A stretch of 64,000 nucleotides of DNA from Squalus acanthias. Taxonomy: Eukaryota. The stretch covers positions 27,840,001-27,904,000 of the forward strand of contig CM059432.1 of assembly GCA_030390025.1 (NCBI GenBank). Direction: 5' to 3'. The notes below the pieces were generated by a model that saw only the letters and a list, made by a program, of their open reading frames with translations, was not told where the DNA came from and made no database searches. How positions within the stretch are numbered: position 1 is the first letter of the stretch; each line of letters starts with the position of its first letter. Position numbers and translations under genes: made by a program. Below, in pieces: positions 654-61,699 of the stretch.

Positions 654-850
654 CTGGAACACGGGAGAATCGACAACTGAGTTAGCATCATTCTCAACCC
701 AGTCCTGCTAAAACCGCCATGGCCATTTCTGTTCTCTGCTTCCCAAATATTCAAAAACGTAGCAGCAAGACCTTTACTAGGTTCAGCATGTGGCACAATT
801 GGCAGCACAAAGTGTAACACTTCCTCTACAGTAACCTGCCTGCTGAAATA

Positions 851-985
851 TCTATCTATATATGCTTTGGCGATTCTGTATCTCTTTACTTCACCTGAGG
901 AAGGGGCGATCGATAGCTCCGAAAGCTTGTGATTTCAAATAAAACTGTTGGACTATAACCTGGTGTTGTGCGACTTCACATTTTT
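851..985 (+). mobile_element. Penelope pseudo-LTR fragment with hammerhead motif (891-932) in CCN4 intron 3
   Basis: Homologous to 21904-22035. TCAC-CTGAGGA-A-GGGGC GATCGATA GCTCC-GAAA-GCTT-GTGA. Confidence 0.85.
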
Positions 986-1065
986 GCTGACATATAGGCC
1001 ACCTTTGTGGCAATTTAGAGCTGCATTATAGGGTGGATTTGTGCTGATTCAAAGCCAAATGATGA

Positions 1066-5884: not shown

Positions 5885-6173
5885 ATGCACATATTCCTAC
5901 TTCGTACCTAGGGGCGTCCCCACTATAGTCGCAGTACAGTCCTTTGTGATAATCGCAGGTGTCTGCCTCCGTGCAGTTCTCTCCCAGCTGCTTGGCGCAT
6001 GCCTTACAGCACTCGCAGCCATCCATCACCAAGCTAACTCCGGGAGGGCACCTGGGCATGCGCTTCGGACACTGGCAGGGCCAATGGCAGTACTGCGTGC
6101 GGTTATACGGGTGGACGAAATCCGTCGAGTTCTCGTCCCCCTCTGAAGCTGCCTTGGAATCCTGGGTGAGGCC
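5885..6173 (-). CDS. CCN4: CCN4/WISP1 exon 2, IGFBP domain
   Basis: Acceptor ttcttcacag|GGC, donor GCAT|gtaagt, 289 nt. Encodes [65 protein letters not shown], which includes the GCxCCxxC IGFBP motif. Confidence 0.96.
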
Positions 6174-6654
6174 CTGTGAAGAAGAGATAGCAGAGTTAGA
6201 AAAGGGGCAGTGGTGAGCTGCCACTGACTCATCAGTGATCGCTCAGTCTATAAAATGTATGACACCAGGAACGTCCCAGGTTGCATCCCTGGCCTTTGCA
6301 AGTTAACTAATATCAGTTGGGTGCAGCAATTTGGATGGTATAATTGACCTTAGGTCCCTTGGACTGGGAACAAAGAGGGGAAATCAGGTAGGATGGCTGC
6401 TCCTGATCACAATCCAGCGACCTCTGCTGGAAAGTGCCACGAGTCGAGTGAAGATGGGATCAGTTTCTGCTGTGACACTTTCACAGCCGATTATCCTATT
6501 GAGGCTCACATGGAAAGAATGATCATTTAGCTGAAGTACCAGAAAGTGGTTGGCGATCCTCTCCAGCATGACCCGGCGCCTGGAGAGGAGGGGAGACAAT
6601 TGGAATGGGAACAAAAATAAGACCGAGTATCTCAATTAAATATAGGGCCCAGTG

Positions 6655-16580: not shown

Positions 16581-17385
16581 AGAAACATAGAAACATAGAA
16601 GATAGGAGCAGGAGTCGGCCATTTGGCCCCTCGAGCCTGCTCCGCCATTCGATGAGATCATGGCTGATCATCCAAACTCAGTACCCTGTCCCTGCCTTCT
16701 CCCCATATCCCTTGATACCTTTAGCCTTAAGAAATATATCTAACTCCTTCTTGAATATATTTACTGACTTGGCCTCAACTGCCTTCTGTGGTAGAGAATT
16801 CCACAGGTTCACCACTCTCTGGGTGAAGAAATTCCTCCTCATCTCTGTCCTAAATGGCTTACCCCTTATCTTTAGACTGTGACCTCTTGTTCTGGACTCA
16901 CCCGCCATCGGGAACATCCTTCCTGCATCCAGTCTGTCTAGCCCTGTTAGAATTTTATAAGTTTCAATGAGATCACCTCTCATTCTTCTAAATTCCAGCG
17001 AGTATAAGCCCAATCGACCCAATCTCTCCTCGTACGTCATTCCTGCCATCCCAGGTATCAGTCTGGTGAATCTTCGCTGCACTCCCTCCATGGCAAGAAC
17101 ATCCTTCCACAGATAAGGCGACCAAAACTGCACACAATACTCAAGGTGTGGTTTCACCAAGGCCCTGCACAGCTGCATCAAAATTGAGAGGTCGCACAAC
17201 ACCAGGTTATAGTCCAACAGTTTTATTTTAAATCACAAGCTTTCGGAGTTACAACTCCTTCGTCAGGTGAAGTGTCAAGACATCCTTGTTCCTGTACTCG
17301 AACCCTCTTGCTACGAAGGCCAACATACCATTTCCCTTCTTAACCGCCTGCTGCACCTGCATGCTTACCTTCAGCGACTGGTGAC
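16581..17385 (-). mobile_element. CR1 3' fragment interrupted by a Penelope LTR piece
   Basis: KPHLEYCVQFWSP...FFTQRVVNLWNSLP with an AGAAACAT tail. The ORF continues upstream of 17275. Confidence 0.92.
17179..17274 (-). mobile_element. Penelope pseudo-LTR fragment with canonical-core hammerhead motif (17233-17270), inserted in a CR1
   Basis: Reverse complement of 21940-22035 with core CTGACGA. TCAA is repeated at both junctions with the interrupted CR1. Confidence 0.88.
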
Positions 17386-20300: not shown

Positions 20301-20835
20301 CTACATTCATATCTAAATCATTAATGTACACTACAAACTGCAAAGGACCCAGCACCGATCCCTGAGGTACACCACTGGACACAGGCTTCCAGTCACAAAA
20401 ACAACCTTCGACCATCACCCTCTGCCTCCTGCCACTAAGCCAATTTTGGATCCAATGTGCCAAATTGCCCTCGATCCCATGGGCTCTTACCTTCTTGACC
20501 AGTCTCCTATGCGGGACTTTGTCAAAAGCCTTACTGAAGTCCATGTAGACCACATCAACTGCACTACCCTCATCCACACACCTAGTCACCCCCTCGAAAA
20601 ATTCAATCAAATTGGTCAGACATGATCTCCCCCTGACAAAGCCATGCTGACTATCCTTGATTAATCCTTGCCTCTCCAAGTGGAGACTAATTCTGTCCCT
20701 CAGAATTTTTTGCAATAATTTCCCTACCACTGATGTTAGGCTCACTGGCCTGTAATTCCTTGGTTTATCCCTACTACCCTTCTTGAGTAATGGTACTATG
20801 TTAGCTGTTCTCCAGTCCTCTGGCACCTCCCCTGC

Positions 20836-22071
20836 TCAGACGAGGAGGAACGCGATGGACACCTACGGACGCTGAAAAACGCCCTCGTAAGAACGGGATA
20901 TGACGCTCGACTCATCGATCGACAGTTCCGACGGGCCACAGCGAAAAATCGCATAGACCTCCTCAGAAGGCAAACACGGGACACAACCAACAGGGTACCC
21001 TACGTCGTCCAGTACTTCCCCGGAGCGGAGAAACTACGCCATGTTCTTCGCAGCCTTCAACATGTCATCGATGACGACAAACACCTCGCTAAGGCCATCC
21101 CCACGCCTCCACTACTTGCCTTCAAACAGCCGCCTAACCTCAGAAGTACCATCGTTCGCAGCAAATTACCCAGCTTTCAGGATAACAGCGACCACGACAC
21201 CACACAACCCTGCCATGGCAAACTCTGCAAGACATGCCAGATCATCAACACAGATACCATCATCACACGTGAGGACACTACCCACCAGGTACATGGTACA
21301 TACTCATGTGACTCGGCCAACGTTGTCTACCTCATACGTTGCAGGAAAGAATGCACCGCGGCATGGTACATCGGCGAGACCATGCAGACACTGAGACAAC
21401 GTATGAACGAGCACCACGCAACAATCGCCAGGCAGGATTGTTACCTCCCAGTCGGGGAACACTTCAGCAGTCAAGGACATTCAGCCTCGGATCTGCGGGT
21501 AAGCGTTCTCCAAGGCGGCCTTAGGAAAACACGACAACGCAAAATCATCCAGCAGAAAATGATAGCCAAGTTCCGCACTCATGAAGACGGTCTCAATCGG
21601 GATCTTGGGTTTATGTCACGATACATGACGTGATCCGGACTCGAGTTGTCGTTGGCTTGTTCACAGATGTGATTCCCAGCAAAAAAGTAAAAATTTTAAA
21701 GTTAATCGTTTTACATACAGACGGCAGCTTTTGACACGTTAGACCCCATGCGACTCCACCTCATTGTCTCAGTTGTATCTTGCTATGTCTTTGATGTGGT
21801 ACCTTCCTGGCTGACCTGATTAACTTTATCACACCTCGGCAGATAAACAGTCAGGATGATTGAATTTAGTTGTCTGCAATTGTAAGTTACACATGCATTG
21901 TTCTCTATCTATATATGCTTTGACGATTCTGTATCTCCTCACTTCACCCGACGAAGGAGTTGTAACTCCGAAAGCTTGTGATTTAAAATAAAACTGTTGG
22001 ACTATAACCTGGTGTTGTGCGACCTCTCAATTTTGTCCACCCCAGTCCAACACCGGCATCTCCGCATCATG
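20836..22071 (+). mobile_element. 5'-truncated Penelope-like retroelement (Neptune-like), GIY-YIG endonuclease ORF plus 3' pseudo-LTR, inserted in a CR1
   Basis: Open frame 20833-21633: CSDEEERD..GY..VPYVVQY..AFKQPPNL..PCHGKLCKTC..YSCDSANVVYLIRC..C..WYIGET..LRQRMNEH..VGEHF..H..GLN. Flanked by the 11-bp TSD ACCTCCCCTGC (20825-20835 and 22072-22082). Confidence 0.93.
21944..21981 (+). ncRNA. Minimal hammerhead ribozyme motif in the Penelope pseudo-LTR (core variant CCGACGA)
   Basis: TCAC-CCGACGA-A-GGAGT TGTA ACTCC-GAAA-GC-TT-GTGA. Stem I is TCAC/GTGA, stem II is 5 bp, and a palindromic AGCT replaces stem III. Confidence 0.75.
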
Positions 22072-24969
22072 ACCTCCCCTGCGGCCAGAGAGGTTCTGAA
22101 AATTTGTGTCAGAGCCCCTGCAATCTCCTTCCTTGCTTCACACAGCAGCCTGGGATACATCTCGTCTGGGCCTGGGGATTTATCCACTTTTAAGCCCGCT
22201 AAAACCACTAGTACCTCCTCCCTCTCAATGCTAATTTGTTCAAGTATATCACAATCCCCCTGCCTGATTTCTATGCCTACATCACCCTTCTCCATGGTGA
22301 ACACAGATGCAAAATATTCATTTGAAACCCCACCTACATCTTCTGGCTCTACACACAGATTGCCAATTTGGTTCCTAATGGTCCCTACTCTTTCCCTGGT
22401 TATCCTCTTGCCCTTAATATACTTATAAAACACCTTGGGATTTTCCTTTATTTTGCCCGCCAGTGTTATTTCATGCCCCCTCTTCACTCTCCTAATTTTT
22501 TTTTTAAGTACCCCCCTGCACTTTCTATACTCCTCTAGGGCTTCCACTGTTTTTAGTCCTTTGTATCTGCCAAAAGCCTCCCTTTTTTTCCTAATCCATT
22601 CTTGTATATCCCTTGACATCCAGGGTTCCCTGGGCTTGTTGGTCCCACCCTTGATCTTTACAGGAACATATTGCTGTTGTACTCTCTCTATTTCCTTTCT
22701 GAAAGACACCCACTGCTCTGATGTGGATTTTCCTACAAGTAGCTGATCCCAGTCCACTCTGGCCAGATCCTGCCTTATCATATGAAAATCGGCCTTCCCC
22801 CAATTTAGAACCTTTATTTCCGGTCCATCTTTGTCCTTTTCCATGACTACCTTAAATCTCACCGAATTATGGTCACTGTCACCAAAATGCTCTCCTACTA
22901 ACACTTCTACCACTTGCCCGGCTACATTCCCTAGAATTAGGTCCAGTACTGCCCCTCTCTTGTAGGACTTTCTACATGCTGGCTCAAAAAGCTCTCCTGG
23001 ATGCACTTTAAGAATTCCGCACCCTCTAAGCCTTTCACACTCTGACTATCCCAGTTACTATTGGGGAAGTTGAAATCCCCTACTATTATTACCCTATTAT
23101 TTCTATACTTCTCTGAGATTTGTCTACATATCTGTTCCTCTATCTCCCCCTGACTGTTTGGGGGCCTATAGTACACTCCCAGCAAAGTGCTTGCCCCCTT
23201 TTTGTTTTTAAGTTCTACCCATATGGCCTCATTAGAGGAACCTGCTAAGATAGCATCCCTCCTTACAACAGTAATTGACTCCTTGATTAATATTGTGACA
23301 CCCCCTCCTCTTTTACACCCCCCTCTGTCTCGCCTGAAGATTCTATACCCCGGAATATTGAGCTGCCAGTCCTGCCCCTCCCTCAACCATGTCTCTGTGA
23401 TAGCAACAATATCATACTCCCATGTGTTCATCAACACCTTCAATTCATCTGCCTTACTCGCAAGACTCCTTGCATTAAAATAAATGCCATCCAGCCTTGC
23501 CATACTCCCTTGTGCCGTTACATATTTGCTCTGCCTTCCAGGCTGACTTGTTTTTTCTTTTATATTTGGCTGTGCATCACCCCCTACTATAGCTCCACTC
23601 CGTATCCCATCCCCCTGCCAAGTTAGTTTAAACCCTCCCCAACAAACCTCCCCGCAAGGATGTTGGTCCCGTTCCGGTTCAGGTGCAACCCATCCGACTT
23701 GTACAGGTCCCATCTTCCCCAAAAGCAGACCCAGTGATCCAGTAAACTAAAGCCCTCCCTCCTGTACCAACTCTTTAGCCACGCATTCATCTGCTCTATC
23801 CTCCTATTCCTATACTCACTAGCACGTGGCACCGGGAGTAATCCAGAGATTACAACCTTTGAGGTCCTGCTTTTTAATCTGCTACCTAGCTCCCTAAATT
23901 CTTGTTGCAGGACCTCATCCCTCTTTCTACCCATGTCGTTGGTACCAATGTGAACCACGACCTCTGACTGTTCGCCCTTCCCCTTCAGAATGCCCTGCAG
24001 CCATTCAGTGACATCCTTGACCCTGGCACCAGGGAGGCAACATACCATCCTGGAGTCACGTCTGCGGCCACAGGAACATCTATCTGTTCCCCTTACGATA
24101 GAATCCCCTATCACTATTGCTCTCCCACTCTTTTTCCTCCCCTCCCGTGCAGCTGAGCCACTTGTAGTACCACGGAAAGGGGTGGGCAGAGGCTACAACC
24201 CCACAAAGGCTTTCTGGATTCTTCTGCGCTAGATCAGGACTCAGTTTAGGTTCTGGTTGCTCCCTCAGTGGGTCCTTGTCTTTGATTGGAGAGCTTTTGG
24301 ACAAGTTCAGTTATCTGCCTTGAAAACTCTGTTTAGCATCCACTGTGTTGATCTGTTGGGGAGAGTTTGTATTGTGCCCAATGCAGCATCTCCTACAGCG
24401 TGAACTTTCGCAATGTGTCTTTTTTTTGTCCGACTTTCTGAGAAAATTAATAACAAAGACCAGTACTAAAAAATAGGTGAAGCAGTACATCTGGCTCTCA
24501 CAGTGAAAGAAATTACATTTCAAAATAAAATTCTGCAGATCACGTTTTCCTCCAGTATTCTCCCCTTCTTGAAGTTGCTGATGCCTTGCTGCAATATGGT
24601 TCCACAGGAACCAGCTGTTATCTAATATTTCACACATTCTTCCTGTGTGAGACAGTGAGTATCAGCAAGCATGCAACTTTGGTGGGCAAACAACATTTTA
24701 TGTCTATACAGCAGGGATCACTGAGCAGAGATTAGGAGCAGGAACTGTGGCTGTGGTCAATCGTAGAACCTTTAACCACTCTGGCTGAAATCAGCTAGCT
24801 TAGCACAGACTGGACAACTGAAACTGGGACTTACTGATCTGAAGGGTTTACCAACTCACCGGGTAAACTCACTGAGCCGCTGGTGGACCATAGCAGCTTT
24901 GTTTTAACAGCACTATCAGCTCTGTGACTTATTATAACTATCAACAGGGAGAGGGATTGACCTTCAAAG

Positions 24970-27510: not shown

Positions 27511-28781
27511 CTGAGATCTGGTCATTTGATGAACCAGGGATTGCTTTGACCAAGATGAGAAACAACAGAAAGGCATCTCAAATTTCATGTGATTTCCTTA
27601 GTTCTACGCAGCACTCATTTTTAACTTGCTCAGATAAGTAGATGTCCTCTAGGTGTTTGGTCCACATTTATTTTGGTGGGGAGGAGTTGTCAGATTGTGT
27701 TACATTTGAAGGGTGCAGCTTCTGGCTGCCAGAATTGAGAACTGGGTCAGGAAGGATAATGTTCTAAGACCGCATTCTAAACTATAATACATACACACAC
27801 TAATTAAAAAAAAATTAATTATATATTTAATCATTTATATCGGGATGGGCTCTTCGCTGATGGAACTCTTTGCTAGGAACTAGAAAGTATACTGTTATTA
27901 GAGTCAAGCTCCTCACTGAGGGCCAATGCATGGATAAAAAGGCCCAACCCACTGCCTCAGAACAAACCAGTCTTGCAGAGGAGGCCTGAAACAGGCGGCC
28001 CCTTATTTTCATATGCAAAGCGCCTAATGCCTGTCTTAGGCGTGGTCACCGCACAACATCTTTATTGTCCTGTTCCAATGTGGCTGGTGGCGCACTTTCG
28101 TCCCCACCATATTGGGGCTTAGTAGGCCAGTTAGCACCTGAAAATAGGCCAGATTTATAGGTCCCTATATTTTAACAGTTGCTTGTGATAATGCTGTTGC
28201 AGGCTCTGGCCAATGGGTGGTGTTGCAGTTTCTGAAGTCTTTCTCTACTCCATCACCAGCTTGTGTGTAAAATGAATTATATTCATCAAATCAACTATGG
28301 GCAAGACCATGGGCAATTTACTAGTCACTATTAAAAGGTTTGCCACTGACAATCTGCTAGCTGAATTCCCGGCAGTTCCATCAATGGGAGGGCACCTAAT
28401 TTCCATAGAAGGGCACCCCACCACCCCAATGCCCACCTGGCCCATGCAACTGGAAAATCTGGTGCCTGCTCACCATTGGGGAGGTGGGGGACTTGCCCAA
28501 GCTCCTCCCAGAATACATCCCTACAGGCCCCTGTGTAAGGTTATCAATTAATTTATCCATTCTTCTGAGGTTCAGGCCATTTGATTGGTCTGGACACTCC
28601 CGTCCCCCCTCGCCCCCCATGGGACCCACCTGCACCCTTCTAGAGGCTAGTACCCTTCATCTCACTATGTGTACCGACTCCAGCATTGGGTTAAGAATGA
28701 GCCAAGGAAGTGGGAAACCCCCAGAATAGGGAACCCACATCCCCAGTTCCGCCCCACTGACAACGTCTGTCTTATGAGGGA

Positions 28782-28980
28782 CATGATGCGGAGATGCTGG
28801 TGTTGGACTGGGGTGGACAAAATTGAGAGGTCGCATAACACCAGGTTATAGTCCAACAGTTTTATTTTAAATCACAAGCTTTCGGAGTTACAACTCCTTC
28901 GTCGGGTGAGTAACTCCGAAAGCTTGTGATTTAAAATAAAACTGTTGGACTATAACCTGGTGTTGTGCGACCTCTCATTT
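28782..28980. mobile_element. Inverted pair of Penelope pseudo-LTR ends with TSD; complete hammerhead motif on the minus arm (28872-28909)
   Basis: Minus arm 28782-28909 and plus arm 28910-28980. TTATGAGGGACA occurs on both sides (28772-28783 and 28981-28992). Confidence 0.9.
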
Positions 28981-29102
28981 TTATGAGGGACAGGCAGAGG
29001 TTCTATCTCTTACAAGGCACACGGATTGCAGCGGTTCAAGAAGGCGGCTAGCCACCACCTTCTCAAGGGCAATTAGGGATGGGCAATAAATGCTATCAGA
29101 TA

Positions 29103-31826: not shown

Positions 31827-32561
31827 ATTTATGCCAGTGATGCCCACATTCCATGAACGAATAAAAAAAAAAGGCAGCTCAGGAAATCCCATGGAAGACG
31901 CCCTAGGAAGACGGTGAAATCAGTTTGTATTGATTAATTCAAATGCAAATTAGACAGACTTCTTTCAGAAAATAACATTTTGGGATACAGTATATGAGTA
32001 ATTTGAGACCTGACATGTGGTAATGTTTGTGAGGAAAAGGGTGACTTTGGATCTATGATTCCCAAAGCTCTCCACCACTGGGAATTTTCCGCACCTCATG
32101 CCTGAGTCTGTTGTAGATTAATTGATAGAGATTGATTGCTCTGATTAGTCAACAACTTCATTATTGTTATATCATGTGACTACCAGAACAGCAAACCAGA
32201 TGGACTTGAATCTTTTTTGTCTAGCAATTCCTATGTTCCCACAGTTTTCCGGTGGGTTCTGCTGGTCTCCTGTCATGGAATCCAGTGGAACTCCCTGGAA
32301 ATTCGGGGCATTTGTGTCTCTATGAATTAATGTAGCATAACAGAGTCTGTGTTTCCTTCTTTCGGTCCATGGTAACTACCCGACATTATTGGTCATTTGC
32401 TTAGCAGGGACCAACCAGTCTGGAAAACAAAAAGAGGCTATTACGGTTCCCAGCCAACTTCTCCTTCAGGGTCAACAACCAGCCTGAGCGAACCGAGTGC
32501 TGGATAATGTCACACCCAGCAAACATCCCCTCAACCCCACCCCCACCCAGCCTTTGCTGCC

Positions 32562-33688
32562 TTTGCACCCTGGGCCCAGACCCCGATCGCTCTGTGCCCA
32601 GGGCCCAGCACCCGCTCACTCTGGGCACAGCCCCCTTGCCCCCTGTACCCTGGGCCCAGCCCCCACTCCCTCTCTGCCCTGGGACCAGCCCTCACTCCCT
32701 CTCTGCCCTGGGCCCAGACCCCGATCGCTCTGTGCCCAGGGCCCAGCCCCCGCTCACTCTGGGCACAGCCCCCTTGCCCCCTGTACCCTGGGCCCAGCCC
32801 CCACTCCCACTCTGCCCTGGGCCCAGCCCCCACTCACTCTGTGCCCTGGGCCCAGCCCCCGATCGCTCTGTGCCCAGGGCCCAGCCCCCACTCACTCTGT
32901 GCCCAGCCCCAGCCCCTGCTCCATCTGCCCTGAGCCCAGCCCCCTCTCCCTCTGTGCCCTGGGCCCAGCCCCCGCTCACTCTGTGCCCAGCCCCCGCTCC
33001 ATCTGCCCTGGGCCCAGCCCCCTCTAACTCTGTGCCCTGGGCCCAGCCCCCGCTCCCTCTGTGCTCTGGGCCCAGACCCCAATCGTTTTGTGCCCTGGGC
33101 CCAGCCCCCGCTCCCTCTGTGCCCTGGGCCCAGCCCCCTCTCCCTCTGTGCCCTGGGCCCAGCCTCCTCTCCCTCTGTGCCCTGGGCCCAGCCCCCAATC
33201 GTTTTGTGCCCTGGGCCCAGCCCCCGCTCCCTCTGTGCCCTGGGCCCAGCCCCCTCTCCCTCTGTGCCCTGGGCCCAGCCTCCTCTCACTCTGTGCCCTG
33301 GGCCCAGCCCCCTCTCACTCTGTGCCCTGGGCCCAGCCCCCTCTCCCTCTGTGCCCTGGGCCCAGCCCCCTCTCACTCTGTGCCCTGGGCCCAGCCCCCT
33401 CTCCCTCTGTGCCCTGGGCCCAGCCCCCTCTCACTCTGTGCCCTGGGCCCAGCCCCCTCTCCCTCTGTGCCCTGGGCCCAGCCCCCTCTCACTCTGTGCC
33501 CTGGGCCCAGCCCCCTCTCCCTCTGTGCCCTGGGCCCAGCCCCCTCTCCCTCTGTGCCCTGGGCCCAGCCCCCTCTCACTCTGTGCCCTGGGCCCAGCCC
33601 CCTCTCCCTCTGTGCCCTGGGCCCAGCCTTCTCTCCCTCTGTGCCCTGGGCCAAGCCCTCGCTCCCCATGTGCCCTGGGCCCAGCCTG
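32562..33688. repeat. 29-bp GC-rich minisatellite (TGTGCCCTGGGCCCAGCCCCCTCTCCCTC), roughly 39 units
   Basis: Directly visible tandem array; it accounts for the overlapping Pro/Gly-rich spurious ORFs. Confidence 0.97.
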
Positions 33689-34328
33689 CCTTTAAGAGGC
33701 TCGAGGACAAAAATTTAAAAAAAGCAAGTAACACTTGCCACGGAATGTAGCTTCTCTGTTGGCCTACGTTAGTGAAGAGTTTTCTGCACTGTTAAGCCAG
33801 GGATTGGATCTGTCTTGGAAAAAACAAAAGTGTAATAAATTATCTCTCTAAATTCTGCCTTCTCTTTTCCAAAATAGAATGTATAAAATCTGACAAACTC
33901 TTACCATTTTATAGTAGCTGGGGATCAAAGGTCTTGAGAGCAGAATGAAGAACAGCAGGACAGAAAATTGGAAAAAGATATCACACAAATCATCTATGTT
34001 TTCTCAGGAAAGCAGAAGTGAAGAACCCAATTAAAATAACAAATCAGTTTAAAAGTTTTTCAAGGAATCTCATGCTGTCCCTTCGATCACTGCTTGCTTG
34101 CACAGAACTGACTCATCTGCTCCCCATATTAACTACAGGACTTGACATTCAGGGTTTCTGCCTGGCTCTCTTGTCAGACATTCCTGTCAAATCACCAGCT
34201 GAACCCTTTACATTTCACATGGAGCTTCTCCCATCACAGCTGCTTTACCTCACATTGTATCGACGTGAGATAATTTGCTTTTAATTAAATGATAGTAAAA
34301 TCTGAGAGAAGATGACCTTTCTAATGAC

Positions 34329-54200: not shown

Positions 54201-57200
54201 CAAGTCACTGTGGTGGCTCAACCCTGGGAAATCTATGGGTGAGTGGTTTGAACAATGCCAAAAGAGCCGGGGAACACCATTTGCTCTCTGTACAAGTCCC
54301 AATAGTGTGCCTCAACTGTAACCTCAGAAGAGCGGCCCCTACCTCATCAGTAGGAATTGTTCCATTTTCCATAGCAACTGTCCATATGGATTATCTTAAT
54401 AAGACTGTCAATTTTGGCCAAATTGACATCAGCTTTGTATTGTGGAGCTGTATTGGGATTGCCTTTAATTTTACTTAAAACCCTCACAACTGAGAGAAAG
54501 AAAAAGATCAGACTGTAGAACCAATTGTCTCTTTAATGGGAGGTTACTGGGTGGAATTAATTCTTCAAACAGTCCACACTGAAAACTTAGATGCCTCGCT
54601 GCCATGGGGATGGGGTCTGTAAGATTGTATTGCAGCAGTAGTTGCATCTCATGCAGTGAAACTTTTCCAGTGAGTTTTATTTTGCATTTAGCTGAAGCTT
54701 AATTTGTGGCACATAACATTGCATCACTACGCTTTATTTAATCTCTTTCCTCCTTTAAGATGCTCCTTAAAACCTATCTCTTTGATCAAGCTTTTGGTCA
54801 CCTGCCCTAATGTCTCCTTCTTTGGCTCGGTGTCAATTTTTGTCTGACTACACGCCTGTGAAAGTCCTTAGGCCGTTTTACTACATTAGAGGCGCTATAT
54901 AAATGTTGTTTTACTAACTCGGGGGGTTGATTTCGTCTGGTAGTGCAATGGTAAATGCATTCGTGTAAAATTCCTTTGTGAGCTACTTTAGTCAAATCAT
55001 TAACTCATTTACAACAACTATATCAAAGCCACTTTTATACGGATGCTCATCTGGTTTGGGCTCTGGAAGACTGGCATTCATGAGCCAACTCTTCATGTTT
55101 ACACTGCTCTTAGCCTGGCATAGTCCAGGGCTTTTTTCGTGGGCTTACAATTCTGCTGCTGGGATAAGGGATCCGGATTTAGTTGTGTAAACACGAGGAG
55201 AAGGCTCACAGACACTGGTCTTTCAGAATCCAAACTTACTAAGTGTTGGAATAAAAATAGCACACCAAAATATTTTGATGCTGTGCTATCAAAAGCAAAT
55301 TAAAGCTCTTAGCCTGATCTGCCAGGTGGCAATGTGCTCTCCTCGGGTCCATATTGCTAAGCGCCGCCTCCAATGTATTAAGTAGAACACCCTCCCCTTT
55401 CCAAGTGGCTCGGTGTCAAATTTTGTTTGATAACGCTCTTGTGATGCGTCTTGGGACGTTTTACTACATTGAAGTTGCTAGATAAATGCAAGTTGTTGTT
55501 GTAGTGTGGTTTATTTGTAATGCAGAGCCACTTTAAGCAGCAGCTCTGAGGTACCCGCTCACATCCTGGGTGCTGTAAAAAACCTGGTTTATATTAACTG
55601 CAGATCCCACAGCAGTTGGAATAAGCAGTGTTGTGCACATGCAGTTGCTTTTTAAGTTACGATTGCTGATAATTGTTTATGGCCACTGTGCCTTCTCCAA
55701 CAGGGATGCAAAAGTCGGACAAGCTGGTAGTCAGACAGCAAACATGGCTGCTCAATCTCTGATGATCTTTTGGTCTTGAAATGTCACTGAACGAAAATTA
55801 GCGTAGGAAAAAATAATGCATTCATGTAAAATATCTGTGCTCTTTTAACATGGCTTAGTGGTAGCATTCCTCGCATTTCGAGTCAGAAGGTGCCTGGTTT
55901 GAACCCTGCTCGAGACAGTCCTGGCGAGTGGAGACCAGAGCTCTGCCTCTGAGTTCTGGGTTTGCATCCAGTGAGATACTCCCGTCTGGCGGGCGTGAGT
56001 GGCACCCTCCCCATCGTATGGGTGGTGGAAGCCCATAAATCCCTCCCGTCGCATTTTATGCCCCCCTATCGGCTGGCATAAAGGTGGTCACGGCCACGAA
56101 AGAAGCGGTCACGTTGCAGCCTGTCAGACTGCTAATCAGCCTGCGAATCTTTCCGCCACTTTGCACTATTCTCCAAGAGAAGAGTGTGAAGATATGAAAA
56201 ATTAACAAAGAAAACCATTAACCCAAATAGGAACAAAAAGAATCTCATACAAACGTGACAATTATTGTGCTAATATTCTCACTGCATATTTTTAAGGACT
56301 TCAGTTTTATGATGTCTTTTGGGCAATGTTGCCTCAAGAGGGACCTAAGAGACCAGTTATTTTGATGGGTCTCTGACTCCCCCCCCCCACCCCCAAAAGC
56401 ACTATGCCATCTTGTTTATTTACTGCACTGTTACCAATAGCAACACCACCGTCAGTAGCAGCGAGCTAAAGTAAACTCACTGCAAAACTCTGTTAAAGAG
56501 GTACCGTGTTTGTGGAAAAGTGCCTTATGACCCCCCCTTTTCATCATTTTACAAACACGGCATAATTTGTTTCAAATATATTTCTTCTCGGGATGTGGGT
56601 GAGGCTGGCAAGGTCCCATTTATTGCCCATCACTAGCCAAATTGTCTCAGAGCTCCTCAGCCCATTAGGGACAGAATAAAAAGACACAAAGCTCTTGTCC
56701 CTCCCAAACAGAACTTTTCCATACATGTTATTCCACCAAAGACAAAGCCCCTTTAAAATGTGTTCAGGCCCCTCACTATCAGGATTAAATTCATCTGCTC
56801 AGCATGTACAGTCCACATCATTTATTCTCCATGGGGTTTCTCTGTACTTTTGTTTCCTGCCATGGAATCTTCCATTAGTTTTTTTTTTTAAGTCAGTCTC
56901 GTTTCAAACACGGTAATTAAGGCATTAAATCATTCCCATTAAAACATTAGAAACGCAGGTTCAGGCTTTCCGTTTTAACAAGACAGTTGGTACACAGCTG
57001 TGACTGCCACGACTTGGCACCTCACAGAAAACTTTACAGATGTTTCCAAGACACTTGTTCCCCAAGTCCCCCCTTCCTCTCACTCCCCAGCCCCAAAATA
57101 GTCAAGGAATCCAAATGCTTTCACGATACAGTATTTAAATTTGAAATCCCATTAAAACGAATTGTCATTTCGTTAATTGTCCTGATTTAAGCATTTTCCC

Positions 57201-57672: not shown

Positions 57673-57720
57673 CTGAAGTATGTTGCTTGCCACTAGAATC
57701 CAGAGCAGCAGCCGCTTCAT
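57673..57720 (-). CDS. CCN4: CCN4/WISP1 coding exon 1 (signal peptide MKRLLLWILVASNILQ)
   Basis: Minus strand reads ATG AAG CGG CTG CTG CTC TGG ATT CTA GTG GCA AGC AAC ATA CTT CAG|GTGAAT. This is 16 codons, hydrophobic, resembling the MRWLLPW-type WISP1 N-terminus. Its phase-0 donor fits the phase-0 acceptor of exon 2 (giving ...NILQ-GLTQ...). A CRE lies about 170 bp upstream. Confidence 0.85.
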
Positions 57721-60520: not shown

Positions 60521-61699
60521 TAAACATCTTGGGAAATTGTACATAAACAATCATGAATAACGAATGAAGGATGGAAAATTAAGAAAAAAGTTCCCCGTTC
60601 CCATTACAGCATCAAATTATTTGTAAAACGCTTCCAGGGTTTTCACCTCAGCTTCTGGGAGCGAGCCTTTGTCTTTGTGGTTGCATTCCCACCTCTGTGT
60701 CAGAAGGTGATCTCCCAACAGCCAATGTTCTCTTTAAGTTGCACGGCCGCGCAGCTGGCTTTCCAATGCGAAAAACCGCGCATGTGCGGTATTTTGAATG
60801 GGCCGCGCACTCAAAAAAAGGTAAGAGGGAACATTGCTGACAGCCCCGATGAGTGGAGGCTCTGAATTCTGGGTTGACATCCAGCGTGATACTTGCATCC
60901 GTTAGGTGTGGGTGGCTTCCCCCTCTTCGTATGGGTTGTGGGTTCACGTAGAACCTCCCACCTAGGACTAACCAACCTATTGGCTGGTATAAAGATGACC
61001 ATGGACGAAGTGTTCATGTCGCAGCCTGTCAGACTGCTAATCAGCCGACGAATCTTTTCATCACTTAACACTATTCTCCAAGGGAAGCATTAAGATAACG
61101 AAAACAACTACCTCCGCTACTGTCTCTGAAAGTGTGTTGATTGCTGTTTATATAAAGAATGTATACATTTATGAAAAACATATAACTAGCAAATGGTAAA
61201 TCACATACTCAACTGAGGGCAAGGCACACTGTTTTAAGAAACATGTCATTGCATAATATGCTCCACTGTTTATAATATAGACTCACTATTTTTCCTACTG
61301 AATTGCAGACGACCACTTTGCATTGATTATACATTATTAATATTTTAGTCAGCAAGTCATGAACCAGCTACAAGGAGTTCCTGCTCACCACGCTACCTGC
61401 CATTGGTAAAGAAAGAAGAAACTCCATGAAACAGTTCAGATGGCTGTAGTAAACTACCCAGTCTTTGTTCTGATTAAACGAAAAAGAAACTGCAAATGTT
61501 TTTGAGTATTGACCTTTGGTCAGAAGTGGAAACTGGGATATAAGAAAGATAAGCTCACTCATCATCCAGTTTCAGTTCTGACAAAGGGCATACACCCAGG
61601 ATGTTGACCTGCCATTTCAGAATCTCATCTTACCGAATAGTGTCTTTCCATTGCAGCATCTAGTTATTTCTTAAATGGTTCGGATGAAGTAGAATATAA

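Follow-up and report, generated by a model that had tools for sequence, protein, structure and literature searches.

Our analysis of a 64-kb stretch of shark DNA (64,000 nucleotides; hereafter the window) makes it very probable that the four hammerhead motifs found in it are passengers of independent 5′-truncated insertions of a Neptune-type Penelope-like element (PLE); that in a full tandem element the motif would act as a minimal hammerhead; and that it is most likely inert at its present locus. It is somewhat more likely than not that the source element of the youngest subfamily carried C rather than U at core position 4 (C4; the substitution is referred to as U4C).

Results

Location of the motifs

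All four motifs lie in introns of a CCN4/WISP1-like gene on the minus strand (Table 1), and a preliminary description of this DNA was thus right in placing the motif four times in one gene. Exon 2 of the gene matches ray proteins annotated as CCN family member 4-like at 86% and 81% identity, and intron 1 spans about 51.5 kb. Named by the first base of the motif on its own strand, copy 891 is found in intron 3 (antisense to the gene), and intron 1 contains copies 17270 and 28909, both sense, together with the antisense copy 21944. The presence of the motif in the CCN4-like gene is incidental, since each copy is a truncated insertion of its own and the two orientations are equally represented.

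Table 1. Features of the window, with positions counted from its first base
Feature	Position	Strand	Remark
Minimal type I hammerhead motif, U4C form, antisense to host gene (copy 21944)	21944–21981	+	pattern and descriptor
Stem I UCAC/GUGA of copy 21944	21944–47 / 21978–81	+	
Core CCGACGA of copy 21944	21948–54	+	C at position 4 is 21949
Extra A of copy 21944	21955	+	
Stem II GGAGU/ACUCC of copy 21944	21956–60 / 21965–69	+	
GAAA of copy 21944	21970–73	+	
Palindrome AGCU of copy 21944	21973–76	+	
Predicted cut site of copy 21944	between 21977 and 21978	+	
PLE copy 21944, left TSD, 11 bp	20825–20835	+	right TSD 22072–22082
5′-truncated PLE ORF, open to stop, C-terminal part after RT core	20836–21633	+	
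3′ region / pseudo-LTR (pLTR)	21634–22035	+	
Optional ~36-nt AC-rich tail	22036–22071	+	present in 21944 and 28909
Short, more divergent pLTR insertion (copy 891), 88% to copy 21944, intron 3 antisense	847–984	+	core CUGAGGA
Motif of that insertion, canonical core CUGAGGA, stem II GGGGC/GCUCC	891–932	+	
6-bp TSD of copy 891	841–846 / 985–990		
Short pLTR insertion inside LINE (copy 17270), canonical core CUGACGA	17179–17274	−	motif 17233–17270
Short pLTR insertion with tail (copy 28909), sense to host	28784–28909	−	U4C motif 28872–28909
Inverted 5′-truncated arm, begins in loop II, no CUGA box	28910–28980	+	
12-bp TSD around whole fold-back unit (copy 28909 and inverted arm)	28772–28783 / 28981–28992		
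CCN4/WISP1-like host gene, coding exons 1–4 within window	460–57720	−	
CCN4-like coding exon 1	57673–57720	−	tblastn
CCN4-like exon 2	~5886–6176	−	tblastn
CCN4-like exon 3	~2513–2764	−	tblastn
CCN4-like exon 4	~460–670	−	tblastn
Dispersed repeat with CPEB3-like sequence	~55850–56182	+	second copy 60860–61087 (+), 72% over 236 bp

Occurrence and anatomy of the motif

With up to one mismatch allowed, the pattern TCACCYGANGAAGG matched the 64-kb window at 891 (+), 17257–17270 (−), 21944 (+) and 28896–28909 (−), in all four cases with zero mismatches; the chance expectation is 0.14 matches per shuffle, and none of 100 shuffles reached four. A pattern for the 3′ half of the hammerhead gave five matches in the window against 0.01 by chance, the fifth being the inverted half-copy at 28910–28980 (+), which is without the 5′ strand of stem I and the CUGA box. 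A structural descriptor applied to both strands—C[U/C]GANGA, stem II of at least 4 bp, GAAA-NN-UH and stem I of at least 3 bp, with the C alternative at core position 4 admitted post hoc, the data having already been seen—returned precisely four motifs in the window and zero matches in 200 of 200 approximate dinucleotide shuffles. Both searches recovered, far above chance, the motifs placed earlier at 891–932 (+), 17233–17270 (−), 21944–21981 (+) and 28872–28909 (−); the description of these as four related repeats holds for the motifs but overlooked the inverted half-copy. The four matches belong to one repeat family; they attest that the copies are related and the motif is genuine, but not that it arose four times: three of the four copies are near-identical, and the window holds just two independent stem II versions. 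Rfam hammerhead models gave no match at the gathering score over the whole window and none at E up to 10 within 21000–23000, a result that does not count against a motif that is free of stem III. The exact 38-nt motif had zero matches in metagenome contigs.

The copies share a constant architecture: in four of four, a single extra base stands between positions 9 and 10.1 and is accompanied by a G10.1–C11.1 pair, stem II has 5 bp and is followed by GAAA, and an AGCU palindrome (15.2–16.2) with a CUU site replaces stem III. The type I fold is closed by a short stem I, UCAC/GUGA, and core positions other than 4 are kept in every copy. At position 4 the copies divide: two (891 and 17270) have the CUGANGA box and two (21944 and 28909) have CCGANGA, both of the latter reading CCGACGA. 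The common core proposed in the preliminary description, CYGANGA, therefore matches all four copies, but its “Y” masks C4 in two of them. The stem II difference reported there is as stated, copy 891 having GGGGC/GCUCC and the remaining copies GGAGU/ACUCC; both versions pair.

Conservation of pairing

Stem I is invariant across the window copies, which amount to three distinct sequences. Between subfamilies, pair 3 of stem II changes from A–U to G–U with pairing kept; pair 5, compared by eye, is U–A in some copies and C–G in others, again with pairing kept, and is omitted from the covariation test, being out of register through an alignment gap. The proposed check of stem II across copies thus showed preserved pairing but a covariation score no better than that of shuffles (500 of 500 as high, with three distinct sequences). 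Contig loose ends disclose sister subfamilies with CUGA and a GGAGC/GCUCC stem II, the variants being unphased. In 25 metagenome loci, whose choice rested on nothing but the single-stranded motif (letters of the core and of stem I), there are 17 distinct stem II strings; 13 of these form at least 4 bp, against 1.13 expected, and four do not. Because just one of the 25 loci (L018) has a PLE protein in its 400-bp flank, these loci support the motif type and not the shark family. In that contig, positions 313–378 and 659–778 (−) hold a related PLE with the same C-terminal endonuclease end; its hammerhead also has the AGCU palindrome, the pLTR sequence that follows is similar, and the order of ORF and then motif is that of the window.

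These data bear on whether the resemblance to a hammerhead is a chance feature of the repeat sequence. The four copies are one family and represent approximately one event, and the Rfam hammerhead models are silent; however, the motif sits in a PLE pseudo-LTR, exactly where such motifs have been described, its pairing is kept across subfamilies, and the excess of pairing strings for the motif type is large. We consider a chance resemblance extremely improbable.

The element and its insertions

The motif of copy 21944 begins 311 nt 3′ of the stop codon of a GIY-YIG ORF, which contains a CX2-5CxxC linker (CHGKLCKTC) and a GIY-YIG core (VVYLIRC..C...YIG) with two internal cysteines; the Pfam GIY-YIG match has an E value of 7e-4 and 20.2 bits, under the curated cut-off of 22.6. 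A homologue search with the ORF gave 154 matches among 353 candidates, the named best matches being shark proteins of about 66–84% identity, and one 57% identical homologue (P0017) has an RT (PF00078, YIDD) upstream of the region represented by the ORF. The CX2-5CxxC linker is characteristic of the Neptune and Nematis PLEs and missing in Penelope and Poseidon, according to the accessible text of PMC8557442. The element is, judging from its sequence, probably an endonuclease-positive Neptune-type PLE, the endonuclease linker being the character that places it in the clade and the RT core being missing from the window. Taken with the TSDs, the tail, the inverted arm and the fit to the consensus, the ORF bears out the earlier assignment to Penelope-like terminal repeats with a minimal type I hammerhead.

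Clear TSDs of 6, 11 and 12 bp flank three of the insertions, and the fourth, copy 17270, has a weak TSD of 4 bp at best; each of these truncated PLE 3′ ends brought the motif along. Copy 21944 was inserted into a minus-strand fragment of a CR1/L2-type LINE, and the insertions at 17179–17274 and 20836–22071 are both nested in older CR1/L2-type LINE copies. The ~36-nt tail is absent from copies 891 and 17270 and from the inverted arm (two of five arms are tailed), and contig loose ends at 22039 and 22070–22074 lie near the bounds of this optional segment. None of the five arms begins at the predicted cut site: two start at or 4 nt before stem I, copy 28909 beginning precisely at its first base; a third starts about 44 nt before stem I, and the remaining two start within loop II and within the ORF, respectively. 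Such starts away from the cut site fit uncut RNA as the template.

An AATAAA lies at 21987–21992 (+), 6 nt past the motif in all copies, and the sense copies 17270 and 28909 put this possible polyadenylation signal into intron 1 of CCN4.

At least half of the 31-letter words of the copy at 20830–22075 are contained in each of 18 public runs, from organisms coded A–F. The PLE subfamily of copy 21944 is either very young or common to related species almost unchanged.

C4 as the probable state of a young subfamily

Four of 24 listed public runs were aligned to 21860–22085 (X19–X24, with small or zero shares, were left out); the runs consist of contigs only, in which RNA starts, ends, strand and level are unreadable, and X8 is only presumed to be RNA. 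In the two runs from organism A, T at 21949 accounts for 14,063 of a depth of 116,775 (X1) and for 234 of 987 (X8); it is the majority base in X15 (206 of 294) and X18 (44 of 53), which are from other organisms and to which sister subfamilies contribute; as contig depth sums inflate the majority path, C:T is not a copy ratio and can be relied on for direction only. C4 and the reference loop base at 21960 have equal depths in X1 (~102,700 and ~102,900), an agreement suggesting that most of the UGUA-loop subfamily has C4. Contigs that span the motif with zero mismatches are present in X8 (123 nt) and in X18, from another organism (118 nt), and C4 is found in 3 of the 17 distinct metagenome motifs, two of them with an intact stem II. 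The contigs of the public runs suggest that C4 is the normal state of the young subfamily, not decay of single copies.

It might be argued instead that U4C is ordinary decay, a dead copy or small lineage having been duplicated while the source element had U4: U4 is the published consensus and is present in copies 891 and 17270 and, as loose ends, in sister subfamilies, and depth sums are a poor measure of copies. Yet C4 is common to two separate TSD-flanked insertions, forms the majority in both X1 and X8 and also occurs in X15 and X18, and a T-to-C change that creates a CpG runs opposite to the usual direction of decay in vertebrates. We hold decay of a U4 family to be unlikely.

Copy 17270, the only canonical-core copy on the host sense strand, matches copy 21944 at all but 1 of 92 bases; the exception is core position 4, in a CpG. 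Its U4 may have arisen through CpG decay, which would have brought back the canonical core; if the founder was indeed C4, CpG decay of C4 copies would restore the canonical core after insertion. We infer, with somewhat more confidence than doubt, that the source element of the UGUA-loop subfamily had C4 and kept retrotransposing, such that efficient cleavage would not be required for spread. The chances are about even for the fuller proposal that a young shark PLE subfamily expanded from a U4C source, with cleavage being dispensable in vivo, or with U4C being tolerated or tuned-down and rescued by the PLE protein or by pairing in trans with U4 sister copies. A true U4C subfamily would put the role of PLE hammerheads to a natural test: U4 and C4 sisters would allow cleavage rate to be compared with spreading success.

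Folding and cleavage

The type I hammerhead is the minimum-energy fold for copies 21944 and 17270 and not for copies 891 and 28909; three copies give z-scores of about 0 for the monomer fold, no better than chance. Copy 28909 and its inverted arm are predicted to form a fold-back of −27.4 kcal/mol that sequesters the motif. Nearest-neighbour energies are −16.7 for the swapped hammerhead dimer vs. −17.6 for two monomers vs. −26.8 for the stem II duplex, and so do not favour the swapped dimer. Two-strand folding favours a long stem II duplex over the hammerhead dimer in both subfamilies (21944–21981 and 891–932), aided by a near-palindromic loop II; in this folding model the stem II duplex may act as a competing inactive dimer.

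By analogy with S. mansoni and Anolis elements, we envisage that in a tandem source element two motifs would swap strands, the AGCU palindromes making a 4-bp stem III, and that the RNA would be cut after CUU (21977/21978), slowly and probably only with the element's own protein. The copies at the CCN4-like locus are most likely inert, because none has a tandem partner, two lie antisense, a fold-back is predicted to lock one and U4C affects two. Cleavage after CUU, which the preliminary description expected of the family, is a putative property of the U4 copies and doubtful for the C4 copies in light of their core sequence. The sharp rise in depth after 21964 was considered as a trace of RNA 5′ ends produced by cleavage, a reading that we rejected: among the loose ends listed, those at 21966 run into divergent sister-subfamily hammerheads.

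A more active role can be envisaged, in which the family, U4C included, is a dimer-dependent ribozyme whose protein or dimer geometry offsets U4C and for which cleavage at CUU is part of the cycle. The other core positions are kept in four of four copies and C4 recurs in metagenome motifs with intact stem II; a natural viroid hammerhead with U4C permits infectivity despite considerably decreased activity in vitro (cited in the accessible part of Perreault et al. 2011, PMC3088659); and the ribozyme of PAc, a Poseidon-type PLE of Anolis carolinensis, cut only with PLE protein (Frangieh et al. 2024, accessible text, PMC11167929). Against this, no insertion starts at the cut site, CCGANGA returned zero rows for its four variants in the searchable supplement of PMC4209133, and the Anolis RNA-seq had, in the accessible text of PMC11167929, no reads ending at the hammerhead site. 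The same text reports that catalytic mutants of the hammerhead left insertion in vitro unimpaired, and this Anolis work suggests that insertion does not need cleavage (PMC11167929). We judge an active ribozyme family to be rather unlikely and favour motifs that are inert passengers at this locus.

Copies 17270 and 28909 are both sense in intron 1 and 11.6 kb apart, which raises the question of whether the host has co-opted copy 17270 to cut CCN4 pre-mRNA, perhaps paired with copy 28909. Both copies, however, are recent insertions that hardly differ from the mobile family; the predicted fold-back would lock copy 28909; and the PLE family is so highly repeated that intronic copies are expected by chance. 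We therefore rejected co-option, which we consider very improbable.

Other features of the window

The only Rfam match at gathering level in the window is to the CPEB3 ribozyme model, at 56080–56154 (+), with 44.7 bits vs. a threshold of 35; a second, weaker match to this model lies at 60983–61046 (21.2 bits, E 0.042). Both fall in copies of a dispersed repeat that may be a DeuSINE, for which a matching consensus was not found; by eye, a tRNA-like head precedes the first copy, although an ARAGORN scan of the window returned no tRNA gene. The first CPEB3-like copy retains most of the fold: P2 has 6 of 6 pairs (with letters that differ from the model), P3 has 3 of 3, P4 has 6 of 7 and the catalytic C is kept; because P1 has only three pairs, it has probably lost its activity. 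Conservation of the CPEB3 ribozyme in mammals is described in the accessible text of PMC9901934 and PMC8233481, whereas the CPEB3-like (HDV-fold) sequence found here lies in a gene other than CPEB3 and in a cartilaginous fish. Judged by their listings, the papers in our literature search do not link the CPEB3 ribozyme to a SINE; the repeat hints that the mammalian ribozyme may derive from an old SINE or other retroelement.

At ~32400–33750 the window contains a GC-rich (about 60%) minisatellite-like tandem region with long repetitive open frames on both strands.

Discussion

The hammerheads of PLE pLTRs (min-HHRs) were defined by Cervera and De la Peña in 2014 by an extra base after A9, a G10.1–C11.1 pair and a palindromic 15.2–16.2 (accessible text of PMC4209133). 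The shark motifs are the same as these min-HHRs in being type I, with a 4-bp stem I and a palindrome in place of stem III; they resemble them also in occurring mostly as single motifs from truncated PLEs, with opposite-strand pairs close together, and in having U-rich 5′ and AU-rich 3′ flanks (PMC4209133). The searchable supplement of that study did not return a shark entry; its Chrysemys (turtle) row has the G–C palindrome and U–U site found here and its lamprey row has stem I UCAC/GUGA. The core variant given in its accessible text is U3–A8; U4C does not occur in the rows of the searchable supplement. Min-HHRs of PLEs were, in the same text, inactive in vitro as single motifs and weak as multimers.

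As in PAc, the hammerhead of the shark element lies in a pLTR, near an AC-rich tail region, and an optional tail, of 30–40 nt in the Anolis system, gives two 3′ ends, with uncut RNA as the likely template (accessible text of PMC11167929). Unlike the Poseidon-type PAc, the shark element has the CX2-5CxxC linker of Neptune and Nematis (PMC8557442). Craig et al. (2021) describe Neptune-clade EN+ PLEs with this common linker, Nematis having the linker motif too, and call the role of PLE hammerheads unclear, in the accessible text of PMC8557442. The 5′ truncation, inverted arms, TSDs and optional tail of the shark insertions are all described PLE traits (accessible text of PMC11167929 and PMC8557442).

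A non-LTR retrozyme, which would comprise at least two head-to-tail HHR units, was also considered and rejected: the copies are single and kilobases apart, and the only adjacent pair is inverted (retrozymes as described in the accessible part of bioRxiv 10.64898/2026.07.22.740005). This 2026 preprint covers PLEs and retrozymes across vertebrates and places retrozymes in one chondrichthyan. Lunse, Weinberg and Breaker reported small PLE hammerhead variants that cleave as dimers (as cited in the accessible text of PMC6765202), and their work may already cover sharks or U4C, which bears on the novelty of the latter. Judged by their listings, the papers in our literature search include none on a shark PLE ribozyme.

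The viroid hammerhead carries the same substitution in the CUGA turn as the shark copies; however, it is a full hammerhead (accessible part of PMC3088659), whereas here U4C affects a retroelement motif that lacks stem III and is weak to begin with. The shark PLE family is one more in the hammerhead class described in 2014.
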